Below are positions 1 to 23,500 of a stretch of DNA of 64,000 nt, one piece after another. Under the pieces are notes generated by a model that was not told the DNA's origin, made no database searches, and saw only the letters and a program-made list of their open reading frames with translations. The position numbers were made by a program, and so were the translations under genes. Each line of letters starts with the position of its first letter. The stretch's first letter is position 1. Source of the stretch: Xylographa opegraphella (taxonomy: Eukaryota); the NCBI GenBank assembly GCA_022813865.1, contig JALDZX010000041.1, forward strand, positions 62,001 to 126,000, in the 5' to 3' direction.

Positions 1-1735
1 GTTCAATTCTACCAGAGCGGAGATCTAGGGACAGTTTGGAACAAACTTAGAGTTGAAGGTGTATCGGACTTTGCTGTATCGCCCGGAGAAAACCATTCGA
101 TTGCGGTCTTCGTTCCAGAGCGCAAGGTATGACCGTCAGGGTTGTTTGTTTTGAGTTTATTGATCTGAAGATTATTACTAGGGTCAACCAGCCGCGGTCA
201 AAGTTTTCAATGTCCCGAACTTCAACGCCCCAGTCTCACAGAAAAACTTCTTTAAGGGTGATAAAGTGCAGTTGAAATGGAATGACCAGGGAACTAGCCT
301 CATTGTGCTGGCACAAACCGAGGTCGACAAGTCCGGAAAAAGTTACTATGGCGAGACTACTCTTTATCTGTTGAGTGCCAACGGAGGATTTGACTCGAGA
401 ATTGACTTAGGTATTGACAATAATATAAAGGAGAGGTATATATCGAACTAACAATCTGTAGACAAGGATGGTCCCATACATGATGTTACGTGGTCTTCGA
501 ATTCCAAAGAGTTTGGAGTTGTATATGGATATATGCCCGCAAAAACGACGATATTTAATACACGCGCGGAACCTACCCACAGTTTTGCGCTTGGTCCACG
601 CAATACCATCCTATTCTCACCTCATGGCCGTTTTGTGCTTGTGGCTGGCTTTGGTAATCTTGCTGGACAAATGGACATCTATGATCTAAGTAAAGATTAT
701 CTCAAAATTTGCACTATCGAGGCTAGTAATGCTAGTGTATGCGAGTGGAGTCCTGATGGAAAGCACATCCTTACGGCGACGACCAGTCCCCGGCTTCGTG
801 TGGACAACGGTGTGAGAATATGGCATGTTGGTGGGGGTCTCATGTATAACGAGGAACTGCAGGAGTTGTATCACGTTACCTGGAGACCACAGTCCGCAAC
901 TATGCATCCACTAGAGAACCCATTTCACCAAATGCCTACGCCGCATGGTTCAGCGTTAGCGTATTTGGGCACTGTCAAGACACCTTCCAAACCTGCCGGA
1001 GCATACCGCCCACCCGGGGCAAGAGGTACGACCACACCGCTTGCTTTCATGCGAGAGGATCAAGGCGGAGCAGCTTATGTAAGCAATGGCAGTCTTTCGC
1101 TCGGAAGTGGCGTGAATGGGTTTGGTAAACCGAGGAGGCGAGAAGTGCCGGGAGCCGAGGCTTCATCTGTAGATACTCCTGGAAATGCAGTGGACGGAGA
1201 CGAAAATTTATCAAAGGCAGCTCAAAAGAACAAGAAGAAGAGGGAGGCGAAGAGGGCGAAGGACGCCTCAGATAGAGCTGCCGGACTCACTCCTTCAGGG
1301 GAGGGCGTTCAACCAGCAGTAGCACCGAGTCCGAGCAGAAGCCCAGAGAGACGTGACAGGCGAGGTCACGAGCGGAACAGATCACGAAATGACAGTGATT
1401 TACGACCCCGATCTCAGCAAGGCCGACGCGGACATAGCCAGCGCCGTGATGGCCCACCACGAGGTTTCAATAATCCAAATGGCACGAACGGTACACACGT
1501 TGATACCTCACATCGTCCGTCTCCTTCCATGGCACCCGATCTCACCGTCACTTCTCCTGGAGGAGGCACACCTCAGGAAAAGAAGATTCGTGCGCTTACG
1601 AAGAAACTTCGCGCCATCGACGATTTGAAAATGAGGCGGGCGGGAGGGGAGATCCTTGAAGGCACACAAATAAAGAAAATGGAGACCGAGGATAGCGTGC
1701 GGAGAGAGCTCGAAGGTCTTGGGTATGTCGAATAG
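1..1735 (+). CDS. eIF2A: Eukaryotic translation initiation factor 2A (5' end outside window); introns 127-181 and 411-461
   Basis: Spliced translation gives KNFFKGDKVQLKWN, TEVDKSGKSYYGET, DKDGPIHDVTWS, GFGNLAG, ATTSPRLRVDNG and C-terminal EKKIRALTKKLRAIDDLK; GT..AG introns restore the frame. Confidence 0.95.
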
Positions 1736-6412: not shown

Positions 6413-9400
6413 TCAGTTTCTCTCCTTGTAGGCGCTCCGCTCCTCCTCGATCATGTCCATCGCGACCTCCAAGTTCCCGTTCGCCGCCTGCGCGTACACG
6501 ACCAAGCGCGCTGCGCCACCATCCTCCTCCCTTCCGAAGCCGAGGTCTTTCAACTGACCGACACAAAACTGCACAGAGCTCACGGTGGATGCGTCAAAAT
6601 GGAGTGGGGTGGATGTTCCGTCACGGGCGATGGTGTATTCGGGTGGTCGGTCCGTTCGAGCGCCGACCGGACTTGGGAACGCCTCGGTTTGTGGTGGAGC
6701 ACCGACGTTTCGTTGCACGCTTTCCTTTTCATGTCCGTCGTCAATGCTTTGAGCGAGAAGTTGATCGTGCTTATCTTGCGCTCTCGCGATGCGATTTCCA
6801 AGGAAGGAGTCCCACTCCACTCGACCATTTCCGTCAAAGTATGCGGAATAAGGCCTTCTGTTCGCTCCCGCGTATCTGTCCGGCAAGCCAATAACGGTGG
6901 CGCTTCGACGGACGCCCTCAATGAGCTGATGGCGGTGGATGGTGGCAGTTTCTGCCACAGGATCAAAGGGCTTGATGAGACGAGCGTCGAGAGGCGCAGG
7001 GTTACCGTGGGTGTTCGCGCCGGGTTGCTCAGAAGGCTCATCAAGACCAGTCATCCGGCGAAAGAAATCCCCCGAAGACTCGTTCATGCTTTCCCGCTGC
7101 TGCACCCATTCTTTCTTGTATGTTGCTGGCTTCTGGTCGGCACGCGATCCAACTTCTTGAGACTTCCTGAGATCCGCTTCCACACCCCTTTTATCCGCAT
7201 TTACACGGACCGGAATGAGTGGCTCCATGCTTGGAAGCGGTGGGAACTGTAGCACACTACGCCGATTGCTGTCCTCAAACTGCTCTAAGGTCGGAAACCT
7301 TGTTGCGACCAGTGGCGAGCTTGGTACGGCGCAGCTTACGGGTGCCTTTGTCGTAGTCAGACCGGCCAAAGTATCTAATTGTGCTCTCTTGCGGTCATTG
7401 AAGGATTTGTTTAATGTACCAAATAGTCCAGATCTTGCATCCGCGTCCCTTGGGGTTGATAAATCAAGTGGCGGAGGCGGTTTGCGTATAGCACTAAGAC
7501 TCTTCGAATGGCGCAATGTCGTTGCCTCTACCAGTCGCTTTTTGTCCCCTTCGGAGTGGACATGTGGCGGATATACCGATGTAGCTCCGAATCTCACGTG
7601 GGCTGCTTTGTTGCTGGGTCGTTGTTGAGGAAGCGGTTGATAAACCGGGGATACCGGGGTGCGAACAATTGCACCATTCCGTTCGACGTTGGGTCGTCCA
7701 GGGGCAGACCCGAGATGATGACGTCGGATTGGGAGGTTACTATGAAGCCCCGATCGTTGTACCTTTGGGTGAAGGATTTCAGATCGCTGTGGGACCGGCA
7801 TCTCGCGAGCTATACTTGCACCTGGAGACCTACTGCGTGGTCGGCTTTCTCGACGATGCTCTATCTCAGGCATTGACCTTCGCTTGTACTGCAGTGAGGG
7901 CGGTGATAGTCGATTCACAAGTCCAGATGGCAATGCTAAATTCTGGACTAGGCACTGGGGGCGACCTCGAGCAGTACCCATGGAAGCGGACGGTATTTGA
8001 CTCGGTATATAACGATATGTAATGGGTGACTCAGTGCGATGTCGTGTGGTATTTTGACCAACATAGACATCTTTGGAGTCCTCATATCCTGCAGCTTGAT
8101 TGTTCCGCAAACTTGCTGAGGGTCCTACTTTCCCAACTTGAATAGGAGCTTCGATCGTCTCACTGGGAGAAGCGTTACGTGGCACTGTGGTCTTGGCGTT
8201 GTTCTCTTCATTGAAGCCTGTGACCGCTTTCAAGGACATGTTGACCGTTTGACTCGCCTTGTGTTCTCCATGTCCTTCCCTAACGACTTGGTGAAGCGAG
8301 GAGGAATTCGCTTCATCACTATCGGAAGAGGCTTTTGAGTCCTCAATCATTCGCAAGCGCTGGCTGAATGTGTCGAAAGCGTGTGTCATTGCTTGAAGAC
8401 TTCGAATAGCAGTGGGCAGCGGAGGTTGGATTTGGAGTGTTACAGGGGATGATTTCTTGTCATCCACAGATGGTTCGACTGCGAGCGCTTCCAGAGCAGC
8501 ATCGATGCTAGACTTGAAGTCAGAGCAGGCATTACGAAGATGATACTTGATCGGAGTCGCGCGTGGACGAATCATGTGTGTTGGTATCACATCGAGGACG
8601 TGATTCTGAAGTTGGGCGCTGAGCGTTTCGACGTTGCTTCCAATCGAAGCAATCGTCTGTAAAAGAAGATTACGAGTAAATGCCTCGAGCTCAGGTCCGG
8701 ATGCGTTTGGACGGATTTGAGGCTGTTCTTGAACAACCGTCTTTTCTGGAGACGTATCACTTTTCCGCGTAAAACTGTTCTCAACGGACTCGTCGTGTTT
8801 GGCGTTCGTTATCTTGGCTAATTCGGCACGAAAGGCATGCAGTAGAGATCCTTCTGTGTCACTCACCGACTGAGTGTGCGCCATGGGGGACACGAGGAGT
8901 GGACTAGCCGGCTGAGCCAATTCAGGCGTCGGAGTGGTTGAAGAAGGAACAGTCTTAGCCGTGTTAACGGACTCTTTGCTTCCGTATTGAGCCCATCGGT
9001 TGGCATTCATCTGCTGTGAGCCGTGTCCGCCAGTCCAGTTCATTCGGAAAGCAGGATTGCTCCGCATTCGAAGTCTTATACCGGCCTCCATTGCCTAGCA
9101 TTTGTGGTTAGCCTAACTTCGCTGACGACAAGCAACAACCACCAGGGCTCGAAACATGCTGAACCAACCTACCTGACGTCTTCCTTCTGCAGTGAGGGAA
9201 CCTTCGTTGAACGAATCAAGTAACGGTGCGGTCTCTTCGCGAAATGCTTTTGCCTCATTCTCGTTATTCAGGACATCTGACACCCTCATACGAGTGTGTT
9301 GTGCAGGTTTGTCGGGTTCTTCGCTCTTCTCATGAGCGACTTGGGGAGGATTGGTAGCTGTGAAATAGAGAAGTCGTGGATCGTATTGAGAATCCGACGA

Positions 9401-11084
9401 GTAGTACCACTGGTAGGGCCAATACCTAGCAGCGTTATCGTTCGTTGTTGGCGAACTCCACACTTGACCATGAAATGACCTGATTTTGCATTCTTGCTCG
9501 AATCGCACGCAGTTCACACACCGACCGTCGGAAGATGTTGGAGCGACGCGACAACGAATCTACATACCGGTTAGAATTCTAGAATCCAAGGGCCAAGTGC
9601 AACCTACCTTGCGTCTTCGGCAGTATCTGCAAGCTCCAATAACATTCCGCCAGTTTCGTGGAGTTTCGGTTTGGCCATGACGCGGCTTCTTCTTCTGCAG
9701 GAAAGCTTCCTGGCGTTCTTCTGTACTTTCAACCACAGACAGAGGAACTTGTAGGCTCTCACAACTCTCAATTGTAGCCAGTCGTTCAGCAACATTTATC
9801 GTAATTCCTTCAGGTTCAATAATATCCGTGCCGACTAATAAGGGTACAGGCAAATTATTCACCAACCGGGCTCCGCTGTTCAGTCTGGCTGTCTGACCTC
9901 CATTGCAGGGAATGTAAAGATCGAAGAGCGCGTATTTATTGGAGCTCAAAAAAGTCTCTCCAATGCCTTGCACTGACACCGGATCGATTTCTATCAAGCG
10001 GCAGTCCGGAAGACATTTTTGAAGGAAGGAACTGTCGACAAGTGATAGGTCACAGTTAGTATCAAGACATATGTTTGCCAACGCCCCATCCAGCGATAGT
10101 CTTCCTGAGATTGTCACAAGAGAGACATTCCAATCATCGGGACTTGATATCGCTTCCAATTCTTTGAAAAGGCCCTCTTCTTTCTCTTTCTCAGTCTCTT
10201 GTGCCTCCTGCTTTAGCATTATTGCTTCCTCAAACTGTTGCTTATGATTCGAAAATTCGAAGCTTTCCTGGTTCAAGCGGCGACTACGGTTGGCAAAATC
10301 TAGGAGACCTTCTTCAGCTGTTTCAATCTCATCACTCCCTAGGCGAAGCTCATTCACGCCAAGCCGGTCCGAATGCTCCGTGGGGTACTCATCGTTGATC
10401 GTCCCAAGTTGGTTCTGTGCTTCAACATCATCCACCTTTTGCGGCGGACCATTTGTTTGGGGACAAGATGCTTCAGATAGCCTTTGGTAGTCGCACTCTA
10501 GACTCTGAAACGTACGATCTGCAAACTGTGCTTGCTGTATCATGTTATCACTTAGAGGTGTGCTGGAAAGGCTCGTGGCTACGACAGTGGATGGCTGAGG
10601 TTGTTCCGGAGTCACCGGGGCAAGAAATTGTCTGGATCGTTCCTCAATCTCCTGCCAAATCTTAATTGCATCATCTCGACGGTCTATCTCGAAAACGTGG
10701 GTGGGTTGTGACAGTGAGGTGCTTGCATTGCATACACTGGTTGCCCGACCCAGCGCTGTGGATTCATTCAACCTAGGCTTAAAGATCCTGGGAACAGGCT
10801 CATCCAGTCGCTGAGAAAGCTCAAGGCTGGTTCCGACCTTTCGAGCGATCAGACTTGGAGCGTGCTTGGATGAGAGTAACACTCACTGTAACCATTTCCC
10901 CGTCATCCTCATCCAGGTATTTCAGCTTGCTTTCGGGATGCATGAGAATGTTGTATTCGTACTCTGTTCCTCTAACACTGACGAGTGTATCGAGCGATCC
11001 GCGCCTGCTTGCCGCCGCATACGAAGCACGGTTCGGTGGGGATGTTGAACGTCGTAGGTTGCGGATGCGAAAAGGACCGAGCAT
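6413..11084 (-). CDS. Chimeric ~1498-aa protein: PB1-like domain + retropepsin-like domain + Zn(II)2Cys6 cluster + long low-complexity region + UBA-like C-terminus; exons 11084-10887, 10837-9608, 9559-9173, 9094-6413
   Basis: Three canonical introns (49, 48, 78 bp) join four ORFs in frame. Motifs: LKYLDEDDGEMVTVGTSLEL; ICLDTNCDLSLVD...LLVGTDII; ACRYCRRRKIRC-x8-RCVNCVRFEQEC; QLKDLGFG...AANGNLEVAMDMIEEER. Confidence 0.8.
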
Positions 11085-11951
11085 CTTATCTTCAGGAAAC
11101 CAAACTGCTGATACTTTGACACAGCACAAGATGTTTGCAGGTAGACAGAGAAGATCGATCGAGTGTCACGATCTGAAGTGAGGCTTAAGGAGTGAAGAGA
11201 AGAGCAAGGCGAGGCTGTCGTAAGCGTGTACGCGGCTTAGCGCAAGCCGATGCTATCAAAATGCTTTGACCATCTACCAAGAAGGTGAGTGCCGAGAATC
11301 AGGATAGGTACCCCAAGGGCCTAGTAACTACAGGTAGGGAGATGTTCGAATGGGATAGATACGCCTAGATTCTCAGTCGGGTTGAAGACGTGGAATGTGC
11401 CTGTTAGGCAGCTAGAAGGCTCGGGCGGGGGTGGTTGCCTGTGCCAAGACTTTTGAGCTCTCACAAACCGTGTACCGATGCCTCGATCAGGCTTAGGGTA
11501 GACTAGAGGTATTTTATCTCAAACACCGTGATAGAGCTTACTCGTTCCGGACAGCGATGTTCGGTCTCAACCACACCGGTAAGTACCACAGTAACCTATC
11601 GTCGCCGGACAGTTCATTCCCATCTGTTACCATCACGACCTGTGACGGTAAATGTATTGGGGAATGGGACACGGGAAATGGCAAGGGTTCACGAGATACG
11701 CTTGAAGACTCCCGTGATACTGACAGAATGTGAGTTCTGTCCAAAGTGACTATCAGATTCAGTGGATGCCGTTGTGAAACAACGCAAACTTCGTATAAGA
11801 GATAGACGTTATTTACATAATGACCGCCCGGCAATGCTCTAGCATTGTCTAAGGTATCCAACCGGCACTATGCAAACAGATCGTTTCCGCATTTCTAAGT
11901 CTTCTACTGGTAAACGCAAGATTCGTGATGCGCTTGGCCATGCCAGTGACA

Positions 11952-14900
11952 TCAGTGGACTCGTAGCCGCTTCACATTGTCGTCAAGCTGGAGATCAACG
12001 TCACGTTGTCTCTTCAGTATCGAAGGAAGGGTTAGGTCATCTACGTCGCTTGTCGCTGTCGAGTCATCCTCGCCAGACGAGCTGGCAGATCCACTGTGAG
12101 TCCTCGCAGTCGCCACCGGTGTATCCTCAAGGATGGACAGGATTCGATTCGTATCGAACTCTCGTTCCTGAGCCGCCACACTGTCAGGGTCGAATTGGCG
12201 TGCATGTGCCAGCATATCGATGGAGGAGTCATCCGAACTGGAGTCGGTGCCTTGGCGTGTCGACTCGCTCGACACGCTGTACAGATGTCTTGGTGGTGCG
12301 AACACTTCTGCCTTGACAAGCGACATCGACGAGCTGCGGCGACTGTTGTTGAATGCGGATACCGATTCATCATCGCAGTCCTCGCTGTTTGACGACGAGA
12401 ATGGGATAAAAGCATAAGACGGAGGCGGCAGAGAAGACGGAGACAGAACTGTTCTGACAGCGGAGACAATCTCGTTTTGAACTCGGTACGCAGAGAGGTG
12501 CCTGCGGTTCTGGAGGGCACGGCGGGTCTTCATATCAAGATGATGTCGGGTCCAGACGCAACTCTTCCCTGATACGTAAGAGGCGGCTTGAGGGTGTTGC
12601 GTGGGAGTACAAACATGGCGAATATTGACTTCAACCACGAAGTTGTCAGAAGGACGGACGCCTCCAATGCCCGACGCTTCGAGCTTCACGGCCGCAGACT
12701 CGGTGTAGACATTGTCAACGCTAGCGGTTGACCGAGCATCAATCTCGAGCAGCTCCATATTCTCAAATTGATCTTGCTCGCTCCAGTCATTATTGACATC
12801 ACAAGTATACATGTCAAGAGGACCTTTTGATTCTGTGAAACGGCCCGTAGAATTAGGACAGTCATCTGCCGGACAGCCCAGCACTGAACACGTAGGTTTA
12901 TCGTACTCGGGTACGTTATACGGGACTCTGCTCGCCTCTCTACTGAAGTCAGTACAGAAGCCTACCCTATCGTAGAAGATGATGGGCCCGTCTTCGAGAG
13001 TCGGACGATAGATAGCAGCACAGGCTACGTTGTCCTGGATGTGAGTCGAAGAGTGCTGAGAGTCGTGCTCGGTCATGGCATGGTCTCCATCGTATGACTT
13101 TGTTTGGTGTCTAAAGAGCGGTTGATAGTTCAGGTTTCGACCCCGTCTCGCACGATATGCGGACACAGGCACTTCGACCTTCGCTAGACCTGAAGCAGGC
13201 AGCAAGGCGTCAAACCCCGACCGGGGACTCTTGCTGAGTCCTCTCTGCTCCTCCGATCTGGATTGGCTGGATCTTCCGCGGCTTTTCGATGCTGCCTGTA
13301 GATCATCCATGGAGCTTTCGTTTTCCTGTTCCACACTACTATTACCATCCGAGCTCATGTTTGTACCTTCACGGCCTCCCCTCCATCGGATCTTACTGCC
13401 ATCGCTTGAAAGGTCGAACTTCTCGCTGACTCCTGCAACGGCCGTTCGAACAAAGCCTGGGGTGACGTTGAGCATGTGCAACTGTGCCATACCGAAAAGA
13501 AGGTTTAGATAAACCCATCGATTTCCGTCTCCAGGTGAGGGGTCAAGGTCCAAGTCTGGGGTTGCGAGGCACAAGTGCCGAATGTAATCTATGTTCTCAG
13601 ACGGAATCTGAGCACGGCAGGGATCCAGATCAATCGGCCGCGTCGGTCGCTGGTCCGAATTCGCACTGCTACTGCAGTTCATTCCGCCTGTCGCGGACTC
13701 TCCGCAGTTTGACAATGATCGCTGTCGAACGGCAGGGAGGTCAGTGCCCATGGTATCAACGAGATCTTTGGTATCATGGTATAACATTTTCGCTTCCCGG
13801 TGTCCTTCAATACTGGCAGCATGGCCACTTGCCTCCACTGCTCGCCTGTCGGCTCTAGCTGCTAACTGCGAGACCTCTTCCTGTTGCATAGATTGGCTCG
13901 ACAACTCAGACGCAGCCCCTTTACCGGTGAAAAGCTCCTCGAGCCGCTTCACCACAAGCTTCTTTCGCGATCGCTCCGTCATCTGCCGCGGGCGCTTCGG
14001 CAGAAGGCCTCGGGGAATATCCTGCAGATATGACTTGATGTTCTGCCTATTCGACAGCACGGGCTGTGAGGGCTTTAGTGTCTCCAGGTGGCTTGACTGT
14101 GGGATTGAGGCATTTCTAGGGGTCGACATAGAAGCGTAACCAGAGTCTGGCGGGTGGGTGTTGGAGGTGGTAGACGATGATACCTTTGGTCCTTTGCTGA
14201 GCGGGAGATGCTGCAGCGGTGGTTGCTGCAGGGCTTGCGGCTGATCGATCGCAGGCTTTTCGAGGTTGGCTACAAAGTCTCTCAAGGTCTCCTCCAGTTT
14301 ACGTTTTTTGGAAAGAGGCAACCCATGTATTCGAACCTCGAAGAGCTTCTCCCGTTGTAAGTGAGAAGAGTAATGTCGTTCGTACGCCTTCAGTCTCTGC
14401 TTCAGAATTTGATTCTCCACCGTTAGGTCATCAATGACGCCCCGATACTCTTCGCTTGTACTTCCGAATGAGTCCATGCGTGATAGCAAAGGTTGTTCGG
14501 AGGCTTGCAGGGTGTCGTTGTCTCGAGTCTTGGACTGGACCGCGCCCGATGTATCTTCTGCAGCAGAGGTTCGGTTTCTCAAGTAAAACGGGGGGTCACC
14601 TATGGTTGGCACATCAGAGGCCTTGAACTCGAAACGGGGAAGGGGGATATACGTACGATCTTCAAAGGAGACATTTCGATTGCGGCACACATTCTTATTA
14701 GAGTCGTCGAACCACTTCTCGGCATTGAGGCCGCCACAATTCCGTTCTGATTCCCACGAGATGTTCCTTAAACTGTCTCCACCGTCGGCAGCAGCATTCG
14801 AGGCCGCACTGATATCGACGCTCACAGTAGCACTGGAAGCACGAGCTGAACGGTAGCTGTGGGCCGACACGATCGGTGGTTGCTGCTTGGGACGTCTTTC

Positions 14901-14966
14901 GGATGTGGAGGAAGCATAACTCGCCGACAGCGCGGGTCGAGAATCGCCTGATGTACGACCCAGCAT
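11952..14966 (-). CDS. frq: Circadian clock protein FREQUENCY (~985 aa); 57-bp in-frame intron 14600-14656
   Basis: FRQ motifs EEYRGVIDDLTVENQILKQRLK, KLFEVRIHGLP, DSGYASMS, KKLVVKRLEELFTGK, QRPTRPIDLDP, WVYLNLLFGMAQLHMLNVTPGFVR, KIRWRGG, LEASGIGGVRPSDNF, LPPPSY. Confidence 0.96.
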   Translation of the reverse strand: MLGRTSGDSRPALSASYASSTSERRPKQQPPIVSAHSYRSARASSATVSVDISAASNAAADGGDSLRNISWESERNCGGLNAEKWFDDSNKNVCRNRNVSFEDRTYIPLPRFEFKASDVPTIGDPPFYLRNRTSAAEDTSGAVQSKTRDNDTLQASEQPLLSRMDSFGSTSEEYRGVIDDLTVENQILKQRLKAYERHYSSHLQREKLFEVRIHGLPLSKKRKLEETLRDFVANLEKPAIDQPQALQQPPLQHLPLSKGPKVSSSTTSNTHPPDSGYASMSTPRNASIPQSSHLETLKPSQPVLSNRQNIKSYLQDIPRGLLPKRPRQMTERSRKKLVVKRLEELFTGKGAASELSSQSMQQEEVSQLAARADRRAVEASGHAASIEGHREAKMLYHDTKDLVDTMGTDLPAVRQRSLSNCGESATGGMNCSSSANSDQRPTRPIDLDPCRAQIPSENIDYIRHLCLATPDLDLDPSPGDGNRWVYLNLLFGMAQLHMLNVTPGFVRTAVAGVSEKFDLSSDGSKIRWRGGREGTNMSSDGNSSVEQENESSMDDLQAASKSRGRSSQSRSEEQRGLSKSPRSGFDALLPASGLAKVEVPVSAYRARRGRNLNYQPLFRHQTKSYDGDHAMTEHDSQHSSTHIQDNVACAAIYRPTLEDGPIIFYDRVGFCTDFSREASRVPYNVPEYDKPTCSVLGCPADDCPNSTGRFTESKGPLDMYTCDVNNDWSEQDQFENMELLEIDARSTASVDNVYTESAAVKLEASGIGGVRPSDNFVVEVNIRHVCTPTQHPQAASYVSGKSCVWTRHHLDMKTRRALQNRRHLSAYRVQNEIVSAVRTVLSPSSLPPPSYAFIPFSSSNSEDCDDESVSAFNNSRRSSSMSLVKAEVFAPPRHLYSVSSESTRQGTDSSSDDSSIDMLAHARQFDPDSVAAQEREFDTNRILSILEDTPVATARTHSGSASSSGEDDSTATSDVDDLTLPSILKRQRDVDLQLDDNVKRLRVH

Positions 14967-15464
14967 GATGCGGTTAAGGATGGGGAAGCCGCAGGGCCAG
15001 GCGTCGAACGTGCACTCTTCGACATGCAAGCACTACTAGGGACCTTCTGGACGGACGCTGACGGCTGACCGAGTCCAGGGCGGCGAACGCCACATGCGAT
15101 TACCAAGAGCGCGGATCTTGATCGATATACCTTATGGCAGCACCCACTTGGGATCGTTATTTGGTCGACAGTGCGGGCGTGGAGTCGTGGACAGTCGAGG
15201 TTTGGATGGCGCCTTGGTACTTGCGGAGCAGTGGAGTGGCGGGCAGCTGGCCAGGCGTAAGGGGAGCGGGTGTGCCGTGGTGTGCGTGAGGAGCTGTGTT
15301 GCTGCGCTGCTCCGACGCAGAGTTTGCTGCTTTGCTGCGATGCTGCGTTTTGCACTGCTGTGGTGGGCAGGTTTGACGAACGAAGTCCGGAGGAGCGTCC
15401 TACCTACAGCGACATCGCCCGCGACTTGGGGTGGGCGTGGGCGTGCCCGCGAGTGGCACATGCA

Positions 15465-17549: not shown

Positions 17550-20500
17550 TCATTTGCCCCCGCCATCAGCGTGCGGCAGCTTGGAGACCACTTTCTCGCA
17601 CAAAGCGAGGAGGGAGGCCGCGTTGGTGATATCGAGCGTGGTCAGCTCGACGCCAAGTTTCATGCGGATCCAATTCCGCAGCTCGACCGCCGACAACGAG
17701 TCGAGCCCGTACGCCATCAGCGGCCTGCCCGGCTCCGGCTCGCTCTCGAGCCGCAGGATCTTGACGAACTGCGCGGAGATCACCTCGACGCACGCATTGC
17801 ACAAGGCAGCCGCATCGGCGCCCGACTTGTGCATCATGCGGAATTGCTTGATGGCTTGGTCGGCCTGGTCACTGCCGTCGCTGTCGTCCATACCGCCGAT
17901 TTTGTTGCCACCCCGGCTGTTGAACAAGTAACTGAACCGAGGCTCGCGTGCCAGTTCGGAGGTGTCTGCTGGGAGCGGGAAGCCGACGCCGGTAATCATC
18001 TCGGTGCTGCTGTTCGCATTGAGAGGTGCGCTGCCATCCTGCTGCAGGATCGAGTACGTCAGAATCTTACGCAGCATGCTCTCGTTGATGGGCGTCCACT
18101 GTCGCTTGTCGAACCGGACTTCCAAACCCGAATTCTGCTCAGCGACGTATCCTACATCTTCGATCAGCCCGAGGTCGACTGTGTTGGCATGGAGGCCCAG
18201 CGTCTGCCGATAGCTTGCAAAAGCGTCGAGGAATGTGTTGGCTGCCGCGTAGTTGGCTTGGCCCTTGTTGCCTATTATACCCGAGGTACTTGAGAGCATG
18301 GTGAAGAATTCGAGCGGTTGCTTCTGAAGCTCCCGCGATGCCCGGTGGAGATTCCAAGTTCCCTGGACCTTGGCGTGGATGGCTGTGTGGAAGTCGTCCA
18401 GTGTCATCAGCTCAAAGGGCTTGTCCTACAATGATTTGGCGTCAGCGTCATGCAATGGAAACCGAGACGTGGCAACCTACCCTAAGCACCATAGCGCCTT
18501 GGACAATCCCGGCGATTCTAGGATTGGCAGATTTGAACATTCGCCGGACGGCTTCGATGTCGCCGACATCGCCTTTGGCATCGACAACTTCGCATCCATA
18601 GAAGCGGCAACTGTGTACCACCCTGGCCGATGCCGCGTCACTGATGCCGCTTCTACTGCTAACGATGATGTGTCGAGCTCCGTGCTGAGCCATGTGAATG
18701 GCTAATGTTCCACAGGCACCTTTCAAACCTCCAACGATGAGGTAAGAAACATCAAGCTGGAGCTGAAGAGTGCGAATCGCCGGCCTAATGGGCACTTGGA
18801 TGTCCATCTTTTCTGCATTGGATATAACAATTTTACCAATGTGACGTCCACTCCGGATGTAGGATAGCGCAGCGATAACCTCATCGAACCCGAATGTAGT
18901 GATGGGGTGAATGGGCGTGAGATGACCGCCGTCTATCAGAATGAAGAGTTCATCAAAGAGACTAATATAGAAGTTAACACTACCAGACTGAAACACTGGG
19001 GTTCGCGCGGCAATAGGCGGGATGACGAACCTTGCGACCAGCGAGTCTTGGATGTCCTTTGTGTATGACATATCCACTGCTCGGAATGAGCAGTTCCTAT
19101 CAAACGGCTCCATCGACAAGGTGTTGCGGTCAACGATGTCCCTCTTACCGATCTCAACCATGTTGCCCCCGTCGGCGATGATCCTCCAGGAGGCGTCTAG
19201 GAGTTCCCCGACCAAGGAATTGATGATGCAGTTCACGCCGCGGCCACCCGTCTCTCGCAGTATCTCCTGTGCAAATTTTGTGTTGCGGGAGGAGAACATG
19301 CGGCTTCTGGGAATACCGTAATTGCTCTCCAGGAACTCTCGTTTTTCTTCCGTGCCAACCGTGACATAGATCTGCGTTCGTCTCAATGTTAGTCTAAGAT
19401 TCTCTCAGGGGATGGGATTGCAGGAGATCGGGGTTGTGGGTGTGCTGGGCTCACCTCTGCCTTCTTGTATTGTGCCAACTGGATACAGGCAACGCCAACG
19501 CCCCCGGTTGCTGAGTGGATAAGGACGGACTTCAACACCGTCAGCAGTCTAATCGTTCAATCCCAATGAGAAGGAGTGGGTTCTTGTTCTCACCTGACCC
19601 TCTTTCAGATTGCCCAGATGATACATCGCGTAGAGGGAGCACAAGTACACCGAGGGAATGGTTGCCGCTTCCTCGAAGCTCATCGATACCGGAATGACAT
19701 GGCAACGGTCCACAGAAACCCGAACACGATTTGCATAACTTCCTGCCTTGAGCATGCAGACACGGTCACCGACCATGAATTTTGTTACTCCCGGCCCAAG
19801 CCTCTTAACAACACCGGCACATTCGAATCCGATATTGAACTCGTTGTCTGGCACGATGCCCATGGTTATAGCGACATCCTTGAAATTAACACCCACGGCC
19901 ATCACTTCAACCTCTACCTTTCCTGCATCGACTAGAGGCTCGCAAGTTTCCGTCTCGCACCACATTAAGCTTTGCAGCGTGCCCAACCGCTCGGCTCTCA
20001 GCTGCACTTGCACCTCGGTACCATGGAATGCCTTGACGACAGGCTCAAGCCCTTCTTCCTCGGCTTGTCTGAAGCCATTCACAGCCGCGTCCGGCATGAT
20101 CCGCTGGACGTGTAGCATACCGTCGCGCTCCATGTATTCAGTCTCTACGGGGCCGTCGCGTTTCAGTAAACCCAGCACCTTTGCGATCGCCCAACTTGTT
20201 GCAGGGCTTGTGCTTGACTGGACGTCCAATGTGGTTAGCCTGGCCATCCCATCCTCTTGCCGTGCCACTCGGAAAAGGCCATTGATAAGGGCATTGTCTG
20301 GATTTGTTACTGGGTACTGAGCGCCCCTGGTGACCCAGAGGAGCGGGCTTCCGGAGCTGACGAGCCCCTTGATGGCCTCCCACTGCTTTCCATTTACTTG
20401 TGTCAATACCGGATTTGACAGCTCATCCAGGATCAAGATCACAGCCCCATCTGTGGCTTTCGAGAAGGGATATGTTCCTTGCGTGACGGTCCACCCTGAA

Positions 20501-23500
20501 GCTTCTAACGTTGCCTGGAGCTGTGGCGGAAGAGCTTCTGGTGTGGTTTCGGCAAGACGAACGACAACAAGATTCCCTTGAGATTCGGTGTTTGCTCCCG
20601 TGCCGGTGCTGCCCCACAGGTATGCAAGGCTGCTGTTGCTTGTAGCAGTAATCTCGATGACTGAGCCCGAGCCACGAGCTTTGCCAATTTCCAAGGATTT
20701 TTTAGCCACTTCATCATCCCAAGATGCGGAGCTAACAGAACTCGCCGGATCTTCCACTAGAAAGCCTGAAGACTGGGACGGTGTTCCGGGCGTTTCGGGT
20801 GAGGATGTTTGATTAAGATTATCGAAAGTTTCAGCAGCCTCGCTCTCTAAACTTGTGGTCGGTTTCTCGTCTTTGAGCCGCACCAAGAGCATGAAAGCGT
20901 CGTTGGAGAGAAGAGGCTTTAGATTATTGATCAGCTTACTCGTGAGTGTGATTTTATCTGATGCCTTGATGATGGCAAGGTCGTAAGCAGCTTCGGTAGG
21001 CAAGCCGAGGACTTCCTTATCCAGACTGATTGGGAGGAACGAAGCGTTTCCCTTGTCTTCATATTGTGTCTCAATACTGACCAACGATTTGGCACTGGAT
21101 GAGGCGAAATCATACTGAGAATATGCCGCCCTGGCTGAAAAATTACTGACTCCAAACCACATGCACGAAGTATCTCTATCGTTGAGATTGACCTCTAGGA
21201 CTTTTAGTGTCGGCTTCTTGTGTGCGATCAGGTCGATGACTGTATCGAGCTTAGTTGATGTCTTATCTGGTGTAAGATACATCATCTGGTCCTGAGTAAA
21301 GAACGTAATGTCTGGCTTCCAGGAGACGCAATGAAAAGTGTGAGGGTCAGGCTTCGAGGCCACGTCTAATTTGGTATAGTTGAGTCCGGTTATGCGCATC
21401 ACCAGTTGGCCGCTTTCAGCATCGTACACAGACGTGTTTGCGACCCAACTCTTTTCTGTCTCAAGTCGGCCACGGCCCGAATACACCGATGTTGCTTTCG
21501 ATCGTCCTTCGTGCAAACGAGCGGGGACCTTGTTGATGATAAAGTCGTCGATGAGCGCAGGGATCATCACACTTTTGACATTACTCCGCTCACATGAGGC
21601 ATTAGAAGGCACTACCGTCTGAAGACAGCCATCGAGAGCAGCAGGATGAATCGGGTAGTATGACTGAGGCGAAAATTTTCCTTCGGGCGGCGAGAGCGAT
21701 ATTAAGGTGCGACAGGCGCGCTGGCCGTTGACCGCCTCAACTTCAATCAACTTTTGGAAAGTCGGGCCAAACTCCATCCCGATCTCGCGCTGGCACTTAT
21801 ACCATAACTTGGGAGCTTGAGGTGATTTGAGCGGGGTGGCGTCCTCACCCTCCATGATCTCATCAATGGGATCCTGGATACGAGCTAGACCGGAGCAGTG
21901 CTCTGAAACGACGTCTCCCTCTAACGTAGAGATACGGAACTCATGCCAGTCCTTACTGCCTGGTACTTTCGTCAACGTGAATGTGATTAGGGCGTCTTTA
22001 CCCTCCTCGAGTACCAAGGCTCTGCTGAAGCGTACATTCCGAAAGCGGTAGCATAGGTCGTTTGAAGCAATATTAGCAGCATCATCCGGTGGAAGAAGCG
22101 CACAGTGCTTCTGATATAGCGCTTCCAATGCCATCGTGATGAATCCGGCACCAGGCATGATCGCATTTCCCCCTATTAATTGAGACACCGAAGTCAGCAT
22201 TGATCTTTGAAGCTGTCTGTGGACATCAATCATTCACGAATCCACGAAGAATAGCGAATCAGAAAGCTTTTACGGGGATACTAAACTTACCCATTCGATG
22301 ATCCATCAGGAAGGGCACGTTGGCGACGTTCAAGCGTGAGCGCCATGTTGGTGTATGCCAGGAGCTACCGAGGATCTTGCTCCCCAGCAGGTCGTGGACG
22401 ATGTACTTCCTGAATCTCCAGTCCTTGCTCGCAGCATTCTCATGCCAATACTTGACACTATGATTCCAGTTGTAGTTGGGAAGGTCGATAATAGTGCGTT
22501 CGTGGCCATCGTACTGGTTGACGACTTTCATGTCGATAGAGGCACCGGCTACGAAAAGGCGGCCAGCAACATCGAAAAGTGACTTGCCAGCATCTACTCC
22601 CCGGGACCAGGAAGCGCAGTATGAGACTTCTCCACCAACTGCCGTAGGCAGCGACTTCAAAACCTGAGACACTGGACCTGCCAAAGCTCCCGACGGGCCG
22701 ATCTCGATGAGGAAGTTAGGGGCGTCCTTGTCCTCAAGCATCGCTTTGAGTGCCCCATCGAAACGAACGGCGGAAATCATATTCGTCTTCCAATACTGCG
22801 CGTCAGCTGGGCTGGTCTTCTTGGAGACTGTGACCGACGAAAAGAGGGTCACATTGCTACTCGAGGCGGCTACGGACTCGCCGTCAAGTGTGTGAAACTT
22901 CTTCTCTGAAGTGAGGAGTTTCTCATACTCCTGGCCAATGATACCCATAAGCTCTGAGTGATAAGCCAGATTGACCTGCAACCGCCTAGCAAAGTGGCCA
23001 GCAGCTGTGATCTCTTCCCGCAATGCCTCCAGCGTCTCAATCTTTCCGGAAACGGTTACGCTGCTAGGACTGTTGAAGCACGCGATCCACGCTCGTCCCA
23101 CGTACTTGTCTAGAAACTCATTCGTAGCCTCGGCACCAAGCCCTACAGCTAACATGCCGACATCACTGTCAACTTCATCCTTGCGATTCAAGGCGGCTCG
23201 GCCTCGAAAGAATGCTGCTATGATTGCACTGGCACGGTCGAGCAGGCCAGCGGCGTACGCGGCTGCGATTTCTCCCGACGAATGGCCTACAACACTGCGA
23301 GGTTTAATGCCCCATGTCTCTAGCACAGCAATGAGACACAACTGTAACGCTGTCACTAGAGGTTGCGAGAACTCAGGCTGGCGGAGGTGCTCAGCGGAGC
23401 GGTGTTCTGTCAGTTCACTGATTAGGGACCATGATGGAGGGTCGTGCAAGCTTTGTAATACTTGATCGAGCCTATGTAAGTAATTTTGGCATTAGTTCTT

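Follow-up and report, generated by a model that had tools for sequence, protein, structure and literature searches.

The subject of this study is a gene on the minus strand, at positions 11084-6413, of a 64,000-nucleotide stretch of contig JALDZX010000041.1 from Xylographa opegraphella; the whole stretch is referred to as the window. The locus is a single genuine gene, and most of the long scaffold protein that it encodes is disordered. The protein has an acidic, OPCA-like motif near its N-terminus, a probable UBA-like bundle at its C-terminus and, in between, a protease-like domain followed by a Zn2Cys6-type zinc cluster. The explanation that accounts best for the observations, and that is considered likely on balance, is that an older scaffold protein of the Lecanoromycetes gained a dead Ty3/gypsy protease and a Zn2Cys6 cluster in the stem of the genus Xylographa.

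Organization of the gene

Four stop-to-stop open reading frames (ORFs) were found on the minus strand, at 10821-11165, 9560-10882, 9113-9559 and 6413-9094. A splice scan restricted to GT..AG boundaries yielded a single exon set that translates letter-for-letter to the database protein P0001, a 1498-residue protein of X. opegraphella annotated as hypothetical. An earlier note on this DNA had proposed one gene of four exons with three canonical introns, and the exact identity of the spliced translation with P0001 upheld that proposal. All features of the gene described below are on the minus strand.

Exon 1 (10887..11084, residues 1-66) starts with the frame's first ATG, and the N-terminal sequence MLGPFRIRNL is kept in every ortholog that reaches that end. 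Exon 2 (9608..10837, residues 67-476) contains the end of the OPCA-like region and a conserved block with the HVFEID helix; after an acidic linker come the protease-like domain and cysteines one and two of the zinc cluster. Cysteines three to six are encoded in exon 3 (9173..9559, residues 477-605), where they are followed by an ancestral conserved block, YF.A.NPPQ...EGNLTAEGKRQ. Exon 4 with the stop codon occupies 6413..9094 (residues 606-1498; coding 9094-6416, stop codon 6413-6415), and its product is largely disordered or modeled with low confidence, apart from short conserved blocks and the C-terminal helical bundle.

Intron 1 (10838..10886) is 49 nucleotides long, runs from GTGAGT to AAG with CTGAT upstream, and has a length that is not a multiple of three, so that read-through leads to a stop. 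Intron 2 (9560..9607; 48 nucleotides, GTAGGT..TTCTAAC..TAG) divides the zinc cluster between RRRK and IRC and contains an in-frame TAG, as does intron 3 (9095..9172; 78 nucleotides, GTAGGT..GGCTAAC..TAG). The donors are GTGAGT or GTAGGT and the acceptors AG, and the branch sites are CTGAT or of the CTAAC type. None of the three can be left unspliced, given the frameshift into a stop at intron 1 and the in-frame TAG codons of the other two. Over codons 141-537, which cover the protease-like domain and the zinc cluster, the coding frame has no stop codon compared with 20 and 29 in the other two frames, and the open frame is therefore not a matter of chance.

The protease-like domain

The protease-like domain (9701..10147) comprises residues 297-445. 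A HMMER search of residues 285-466 against 1.84 billion representative sequences returned 416 matches at E ≤ 1e-3, 80 of them at E ≤ 1e-10, and the best match after a Xylographa ortholog had an E value of 5e-24. Twenty-one of the matched proteins, 11 long (1297-2188 residues) and 10 short, were scanned with Pfam. RVT_1 was present in all 11 long proteins, 10 of which also matched further families (RNase H, integrase zinc-binding or core domains, Tf2-1 SH3), and most had a chromodomain. In every long protein the matched stretch was located 215-307 residues upstream of the reverse transcriptase (RT), and it therefore occupies the place of the protease in a Ty3/gypsy chromovirus polyprotein. In two proteins, P0113 and P0052, the matched stretch coincided with Pfam Asp_protease_2; P0052 was the only one of the 10 short proteins that matched any Pfam family. 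Asp_protease_2 was also matched by 8 of the 55 members of the protease alignment, designated A5. As judged from these sequence relationships, the domain originated from a long terminal repeat (LTR) retrotransposon of the Ty3/gypsy, chromovirus type.

The resemblance to transposons is confined to this domain. When six transposon proteins were compared with the window by tblastn, all matches fell within 9638-10204 and no remnant of RT or integrase was detected in the 64 kb. Similarly, a phmmer comparison of the whole protein with 149 transposon-like proteins revealed no homology beyond the protease, only two rows at chance level (E 0.35 and 4.4). A mutation bias of the repeat-induced point mutation type was not seen in the insert (TpA/ApT 0.67; (CpA+TpG)/(ApC+GpT) 1.26-1.35). 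A metagenome scan with the protease domain found one locus, L001 6001-6276, with 34% identity, which is not an ortholog and is presumably a transposon copy.

The catalytic site of the transposon relatives reads C-L-D-T/S-G-C, with the aspartate present at 118 and the glycine at 114 of 133 aligned positions. The corresponding triplet, at 10055-10063 in X. opegraphella, is degenerate throughout Xylographa: DTN in X. opegraphella, DPN in three species and SPN in X. trunciseda. Thus, the glycine has been replaced by asparagine in all five species, the threonine by proline in four and the aspartate by serine in one. The second retropepsin motif, LLVG.DI..PEGI, is kept in the Xylographa proteins, and the G-x-D of LLVGTDII is found at 9824-9832. 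Catalysis is very unlikely given the degenerate triplet, while retention of the second motif indicates that the fold was probably kept, so that the domain has most likely been retained as a non-catalytic folded module. A homodimer prediction for this module gave a score of 0.00; it was made without an alignment and is evidence neither way. The retropepsin domain described in the earlier note is consequently sound with respect to homology to the Gag-Pol protease, but the Ddi1-type origin that it implied gives way to the Ty3/gypsy relatives and the D-T/S-G triplet is lost.

The zinc cluster

The zinc cluster (9488..9631, residues 469-500, spanning intron 2) has the cysteine spacing CX2CX6CX10CX2CX6C, which conforms to the Zn2Cys6 family pattern that was tested, CX2CX6CX5-12CX2CX6-8C, with the basic stretch RRRK between Cys2 and Cys3. 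The same six-cysteine pattern is found in P0002, P0006 and, once a read-through intron is discounted, P0004, but it is broken in P0008. The Pfam family Zn_clus (PF00172) was matched at 23.5 and 22.7 bits in two orthologs, above the gathering cutoff of 21, and at 19.5 bits, below it, in X. opegraphella. The complete GAL4-type cluster of six cysteines split by an intron that the earlier note had described is thus supported in its spacing and borderline for Pfam. Because intron 2 divides the cluster in the raw, unspliced ORFs, Pfam scans of these detected nothing of relevance.

The public gene model for X. pallens, P0004, treats the sequences corresponding to introns 1 and 2 as coding, each contributing 16 extra in-frame residues, which looks like an annotation error. 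Its zinc cluster escapes Pfam because the model reads through the intron. The 16-codon read-through at the homologous spot indicates that the position of intron 2 is shared between the two species.

None of the 149 transposon-like proteins has the six-cysteine pattern and therefore the cluster probably did not arrive within the transposon protein. A common origin of the zinc cluster and the protease was rejected as far as this count goes. No other contiguous Zn2Cys6 pattern was present in the window, and the fungal transcription factor middle homology region had no Pfam match in the protein.

Distribution and conservation of the inserted segment

The acidic linker, the protease-like domain and the zinc cluster make up a segment specific to Xylographa (9377..10588, residues ~150-537 including intron 2), the borders of which are approximate. 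By local phmmer, all five Xylographa proteins have the protease and zinc cluster segments, whereas the 44 other family members compared have neither. As Lambiella is likewise placed in the Xylographaceae, a single gain in the Xylographa stem is the simplest history. The earlier note had suggested a lineage-specific accretion of domains and had proposed to examine whether orthologs have only the two ends. The outcome was as predicted: outside Xylographa, the orthologs combine an OPCA-like N-terminus with a UBA-like end and lack the protease and the zinc cluster.

Constraint was measured as the mean pairwise protein identity among the five Xylographa species. The identity was 0.70 for the protease, without a single gap column, and 0.77 for the zinc cluster, compared with 0.49 and 0.38 for the flanking linkers (residues 141-296 and 446-466, respectively) and 0.57 for residues 506-537. 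Both inserted modules are better conserved than the neighboring linkers. Together with the open frame, the identity of the modules argues that the segment is probably translated and under constraint.

The host protein family

A search with the last 229 residues identified 49 proteins at E ≤ 0.001. The named members are all from lichen-forming Lecanoromycetes: the five Xylographa species, Lambiella, Trapelia, Circinaria and Icmadophila. None of the 49 proteins has a precomputed Pfam domain, and a search of the open-access literature found nothing on this protein family. Pfam scans of 46 members detected Zn_clus in three Xylographa proteins and a weak UBA match in P0015 (E 0.17); the remaining rows were weak C2H2 matches in P0036, P0039 and P0041 and isolated rows at chance level. 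The C2H2 matches correspond to a single zinc finger in these three distant members (P0039, residues 1065-1087, E 2.8e-4; P0036 and P0041, E 0.028 and 0.36, respectively), and it follows that zinc finger modules may have joined the scaffold more than once.

Conservation within the family is concentrated in the N-terminal 140 residues, in residues ~538-640, 1196-1240 and 1277-1370, and in the last 62 residues. The most conserved linear blocks of the C-terminal part, ESSGDFFRRMTGL, PFDP.AETATIHRHQLIEGVRRSATV and NRRPYSAYFDGNGRVEWD, are located in residues 1277-1370 (6800..7081), where the structure model is of low confidence. The N-terminal region and the UBA-like end are both present in Lambiella P0010, Trapelia P0011, and P0038 of Icmadophila and P0049 (967 residues), and the two ends were therefore part of one polypeptide before Xylographa arose. 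The ancestral Lecanoromycete scaffold thus had an OPCA-like N-terminal region, short conserved linear blocks and a UBA-like three-helix end. Trapelia P0011 (alignment columns ~940-1100) and Icmadophila P0038 (in the middle) have long insertions of their own, which Xylographa lacks and which match no Pfam family.

The UBA-like bundle (6416..6601) comprises residues 1437-1498. In an AlphaFold2 model of the last 229 residues, based on 49 sequences, helices were predicted at model positions 171-186, 196-206 and 211-228, with a predicted local distance difference test score (pLDDT) of about 90 or higher over positions 168-229, which correspond to the bundle. Upstream of it the score was below 60, except in a helix at positions 10-18 (residues 1279-1287 of the protein), where a ten-residue block averaged 81. 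A UBA domain is recognized as a compact bundle of three helices in which helix 1 is followed by a conserved hydrophobic-Gly-Phe loop. Across the 49 sequences, an L-G-F-G loop is invariant or almost so; the loop after LGF is ~9 residues long, which exceeds that of canonical UBA domains. When 62 Foldseek candidates were re-aligned with VIA-align, the top alignment of the 41 listed was with the SOUBA domain of UBAP1 (Z 6.8, root mean square deviation 2.2, 52 aligned residues), while the UBA domains of Dsk2, Ubqln2 (root mean square deviation 1.6, 45 aligned) and p62 scored Z 5.2, 5.1 and 4.7, respectively. UBA or SOUBA appeared in the titles of 10 of the 41 listed alignments (Z 4.3-6.8). The C-terminus, as modeled, is probably UBA-like.

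The OPCA-like region (10805..10937, residues 50-77, spanning intron 1) contains the motif Y56-L-D-E-D-D-G-E, which has one extra residue and in which Y56, D58, D61 and G62 are invariant in all eight N-termini. An OPCA motif is described in the available text of PMC7051960 as a D-x-D/E-x-D/E core after a conserved tyrosine in β-3, and the acidic motif expected of such a PB1 domain is thus present in the Xylographa protein. A profile of the eight N-termini matched, at E ≤ 10, only five PDB sequences, all Cdc24 PB1 domains (E ~0.7, 13 bits, not significant), with the alignment falling on P..K.KY.DE.DG..V..GS. PB1 clusters were also nearest in the ESM Atlas (0.80-0.82), which is no more than a lead. 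None of the 46 family members matched Pfam PB1 (PF00564) at E ≤ 1, nor did the 151-residue N-terminus alone at E ≤ 10. The low-confidence AlphaFold2 model of the N-terminus (10 sequences) has a helix-strand-strand-helix arrangement at 39-77 and a helix at 120-138, and the five-strand, two-helix β-grasp fold was not obtained. No invariant lysine precedes the motif, the invariant basic residues being R8 and R12, so that the β-1 lysine of types B and AB is absent and the region would be at most a type-A PB1 domain. Other invariant stretches (F5-R12, Y42, H113-I117, W127 and I130) could supply the missing PB1 strands across two long loops. The acidic OPCA-like motif is real at the level of the motif only.

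Interpretation

The preferred explanation is that an in-frame insertion into a variable linker of the scaffold, in the Xylographa stem, would have introduced a Ty3/gypsy protease domain and an intron-bearing Zn2Cys6 cluster. The ends of the scaffold may have their own partners: the C-terminus would bind ubiquitin or ubiquitin-like proteins and the acidic motif would pair with the basic, PB1-type face of another protein. The dead protease would provide a retropepsin-type homodimer, or a peptide-binding module, beside the zinc cluster, and a dimer would bring together two zinc clusters that could then bind DNA. It may be inferred that the protein is expressed, dimerizes and binds both DNA and ubiquitin. 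Carried to its conclusion, this scheme would make the Xylographa scaffold a DNA-tethered regulator, in which a dead transposon protease dimerizes a captured Zn2Cys6 cluster and ubiquitin- or autophagy-type signaling is conveyed to promoters. Such a regulator is speculative and considered quite unlikely; if it existed, fungal transcription regulators would gain a new class, made in part of transposon protein.

Several observations weigh against the preferred explanation. The zinc cluster of X. opegraphella itself scored 19.5 bits, below the Pfam cutoff of 21, and in X. trunciseda (P0008) two of the six cysteines and the protease aspartate have been lost, indicating that neither module is strictly required in that species. 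The cluster is in mid-protein (469-500 of 1498) with no coiled coil evident after it, an arrangement that is atypical of working GAL4-type factors. The protease region by itself had no Pfam match even at E ≤ 10. At the C-terminus, Pfam UBA (PF00627) gave E 0.0031 and 17.7 bits with the 69-residue end alone, under the threshold of 22.4, and a weak match (E 0.17) in one of 38 other family members. Foldseek found no match to the C-terminal model at E ≤ 0.001, and all of the VIA-align Z-scores were below 8, a range that according to the tool is common for helical bundles. The full-length family profile had no match among PDB sequences at E ≤ 10. The mean pLDDT of the N-terminal model was 44.9, and a comparison of this low-quality model with 48,161 PDB chains gave a best Z of 2.3 with no PB1 domain listed. 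Finally, the published Xylographa annotation, as described in the available text of PMC9098629, was made ab initio, using funannotate with Augustus, snap, GeneMark-ES and GlimmerHMM, and the match with P0001 is therefore the agreement of two predictions and not transcript evidence. The assignments made in the earlier note for the two ends of the protein accordingly hold in part. Its UBA-like end is retained as a confidently modeled three-helix bundle with an invariant L-G-F-G loop, although below the Pfam threshold, and of its OPCA-like PB1 domain there remains the acidic motif with four invariant residues, but neither a Pfam match nor a fold.

The main rival is that the insert is a tolerated passenger, an exonized transposon fragment and a stray zinc cluster exon that are translated, functionless and slowly decaying, and kept merely because a frameshift or misfolding would harm the host protein. 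The degenerate catalytic motif in all five species is consistent with such a passenger, for which the loss of two cysteines and the aspartate in X. trunciseda speaks most strongly. Moreover, conservation within the protein is lowest where the insert lies, and other lineages have unrelated insertions in variable regions, such as the columns around 940-1100 that are present only in Trapelia. However, the linkers differ at 30-60% of positions, yet the protease is free of insertions and deletions at an identity of 0.70 and the zinc cluster stands at 0.77, compared with 0.49 and 0.38 for the linkers, and fold motifs with no part in catalysis, such as LLVG.DI..PEGI, have been retained. A passenger is for these reasons regarded as rather unlikely.

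Two other explanations are less probable still. The segment could be an artifact of the gene model, absent from the mature mRNA as a result of a larger or alternative intron, or at least two genes could have been fused by the ab initio predictors. Every annotation is indeed ab initio and the X. pallens model reads through two introns. Nevertheless, ancestral conserved blocks flank the segment inside the same exons 2 and 3, so that the annotated introns cannot skip it; the 397-codon frame is open here, where the other frames contain 20 and 29 stops, and in all five species despite a protein divergence of 30-45%; and no methionine shortly upstream of the cluster is available to start a separate factor. 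An artifact is consequently improbable. The protein might instead be an active, ubiquitin-dependent aspartic protease resembling Ddi1 or DDI2, which cleaves itself or frees the part with the zinc cluster as a transcription factor. The layout is Ddi1-like, in that a start of putative ubiquitin-like or PB1-like type is followed by a retropepsin and a UBA-like end, and four of the six PDB matches of the A5 profile at E ≤ 10 were to DDI1, DDI2 and a Leishmania Ddi1-like protein, the best being the retropepsin domains of DDI1 (E 0.055), DDI2 (E 0.13) and the Leishmania protein (E 1). The alignment with DDI1 and DDI2, however, spans only the last ~40 residues of the fold, at its C-terminal end, and is not significant; the close relatives of the domain are Ty3/gypsy polyproteins and not Ddi1; and the Ddi1-type Asp_protease and ubiquitin families had no Pfam match in the full protein or in its separately scanned parts. 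With the glycine replaced by asparagine in all five species, the threonine by proline in four and the aspartate by serine in one, DDI2-like cleavage is unlikely, and an active protease is held to be highly improbable. The activation of a transcription factor by DDI2-style cleavage, which had been raised in the earlier note, is not sustained, as the catalytic glycine is gone in every species and the aspartate in one.

Neighboring genes

Immediately upstream and likewise on the minus strand, at 11952-15032, is a gene whose product is a full-length homolog of FRQ, the circadian clock protein (Pfam FRQ E 3.9e-127, profile positions 22-963 of 983). Consecutive ORFs at 17550-22233 (minus) contain KR, PP-binding, enoyl-reductase-type ADH and polyketide synthase dehydratase domains and, from this series of domains, look like an intron-split gene for a highly reducing polyketide synthase. 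An ORF at 452-1735 (plus) matches the domain of the translation initiation factor eIF2A (E 9.8e-58).

Significance and comparison with known systems

The locus defines a protein family of the Lecanoromycetes that lacks Pfam annotation and is recognizable by its OPCA-like start and UBA-like end. The exaptation of retrotransposon proteases is documented mainly in mammals, and the locus offers a fungal case that can be dated, the insert being found in all five Xylographa species but not in Lambiella, the sister genus; the search of the open-access literature found no domesticated fungal retropepsin, all of the cases retrieved being mammalian, and, among the matches listed, no paper that combined Zn2Cys6 with exaptation terms. 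The Xylographa protease has lost catalysis yet is better conserved than its surroundings, and it adjoins a cluster of the DNA-binding type. If the module is functional, it would show how, inside one genus, new regulators can be put together out of pieces of transposons and of the host; if it is not, it would be a well-bounded example of neutral exonization.

The Xylographa protein echoes the layouts of both Ddi1 and p62/NBR1 and belongs to neither family. Ddi1 and DDI2 consist of a ubiquitin-like domain, a helical HDD, a retropepsin domain and a UBA domain. The types of module follow the same order in the Xylographa protein, with a start that is possibly β-grasp-like, a retropepsin fold and a UBA-like end. 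However, its protease is derived from a transposon (best relative 5e-24, compared with E 0.055 for DDI1) and has a degenerate site, and the protein has ~1000 additional disordered residues and a zinc cluster, so that it is not a member of the Ddi1 family. With p62/SQSTM1 and NBR1, as they are described in the available text of PMC7051960, PMC9582228 and PMC9233695, it shares an OPCA-type motif at the N-terminus and a UBA-like bundle at the C-terminus of one long polypeptide. The p62/NBR1 layout that the earlier note had invoked was nevertheless not recovered: the ZZ domain, the FW domain of NBR1 and PB1 are all without a Pfam match in the 46 family members, and the PB1 fold was not obtained. 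The Xylographa family is not among the fungal PB1 families (Bem1, Cdc24, Mug70 and NoxR) named in the available part of PMC7051960. The zinc cluster resembles those of the GAL4-type Zn2Cys6 factors (PF00172) in its CX2CX6CX10CX2CX6C spacing and its basic RRRK stretch, but it is located at residues 469-500 of 1498 instead of near the N-terminus and has decayed in one species.

The closest parallels are the mammalian host proteins PEG10, RTL1 and ASPRV1/SASPase, which, according to the available text of PMC3406341, PMC7212762 and PMC11402058, have kept the D-S/T-G site and process themselves. As portrayed in these sources, they share with the Xylographa protein a retropepsin of LTR retrotransposon origin that resides inside a host gene and is conserved between species. 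In contrast to these proteins, the Xylographa protease has lost the glycine of the active site and was captured as a protease fragment alone, without Gag, and the fragment lies midway in an unrelated fungal host protein, beside a zinc cluster.

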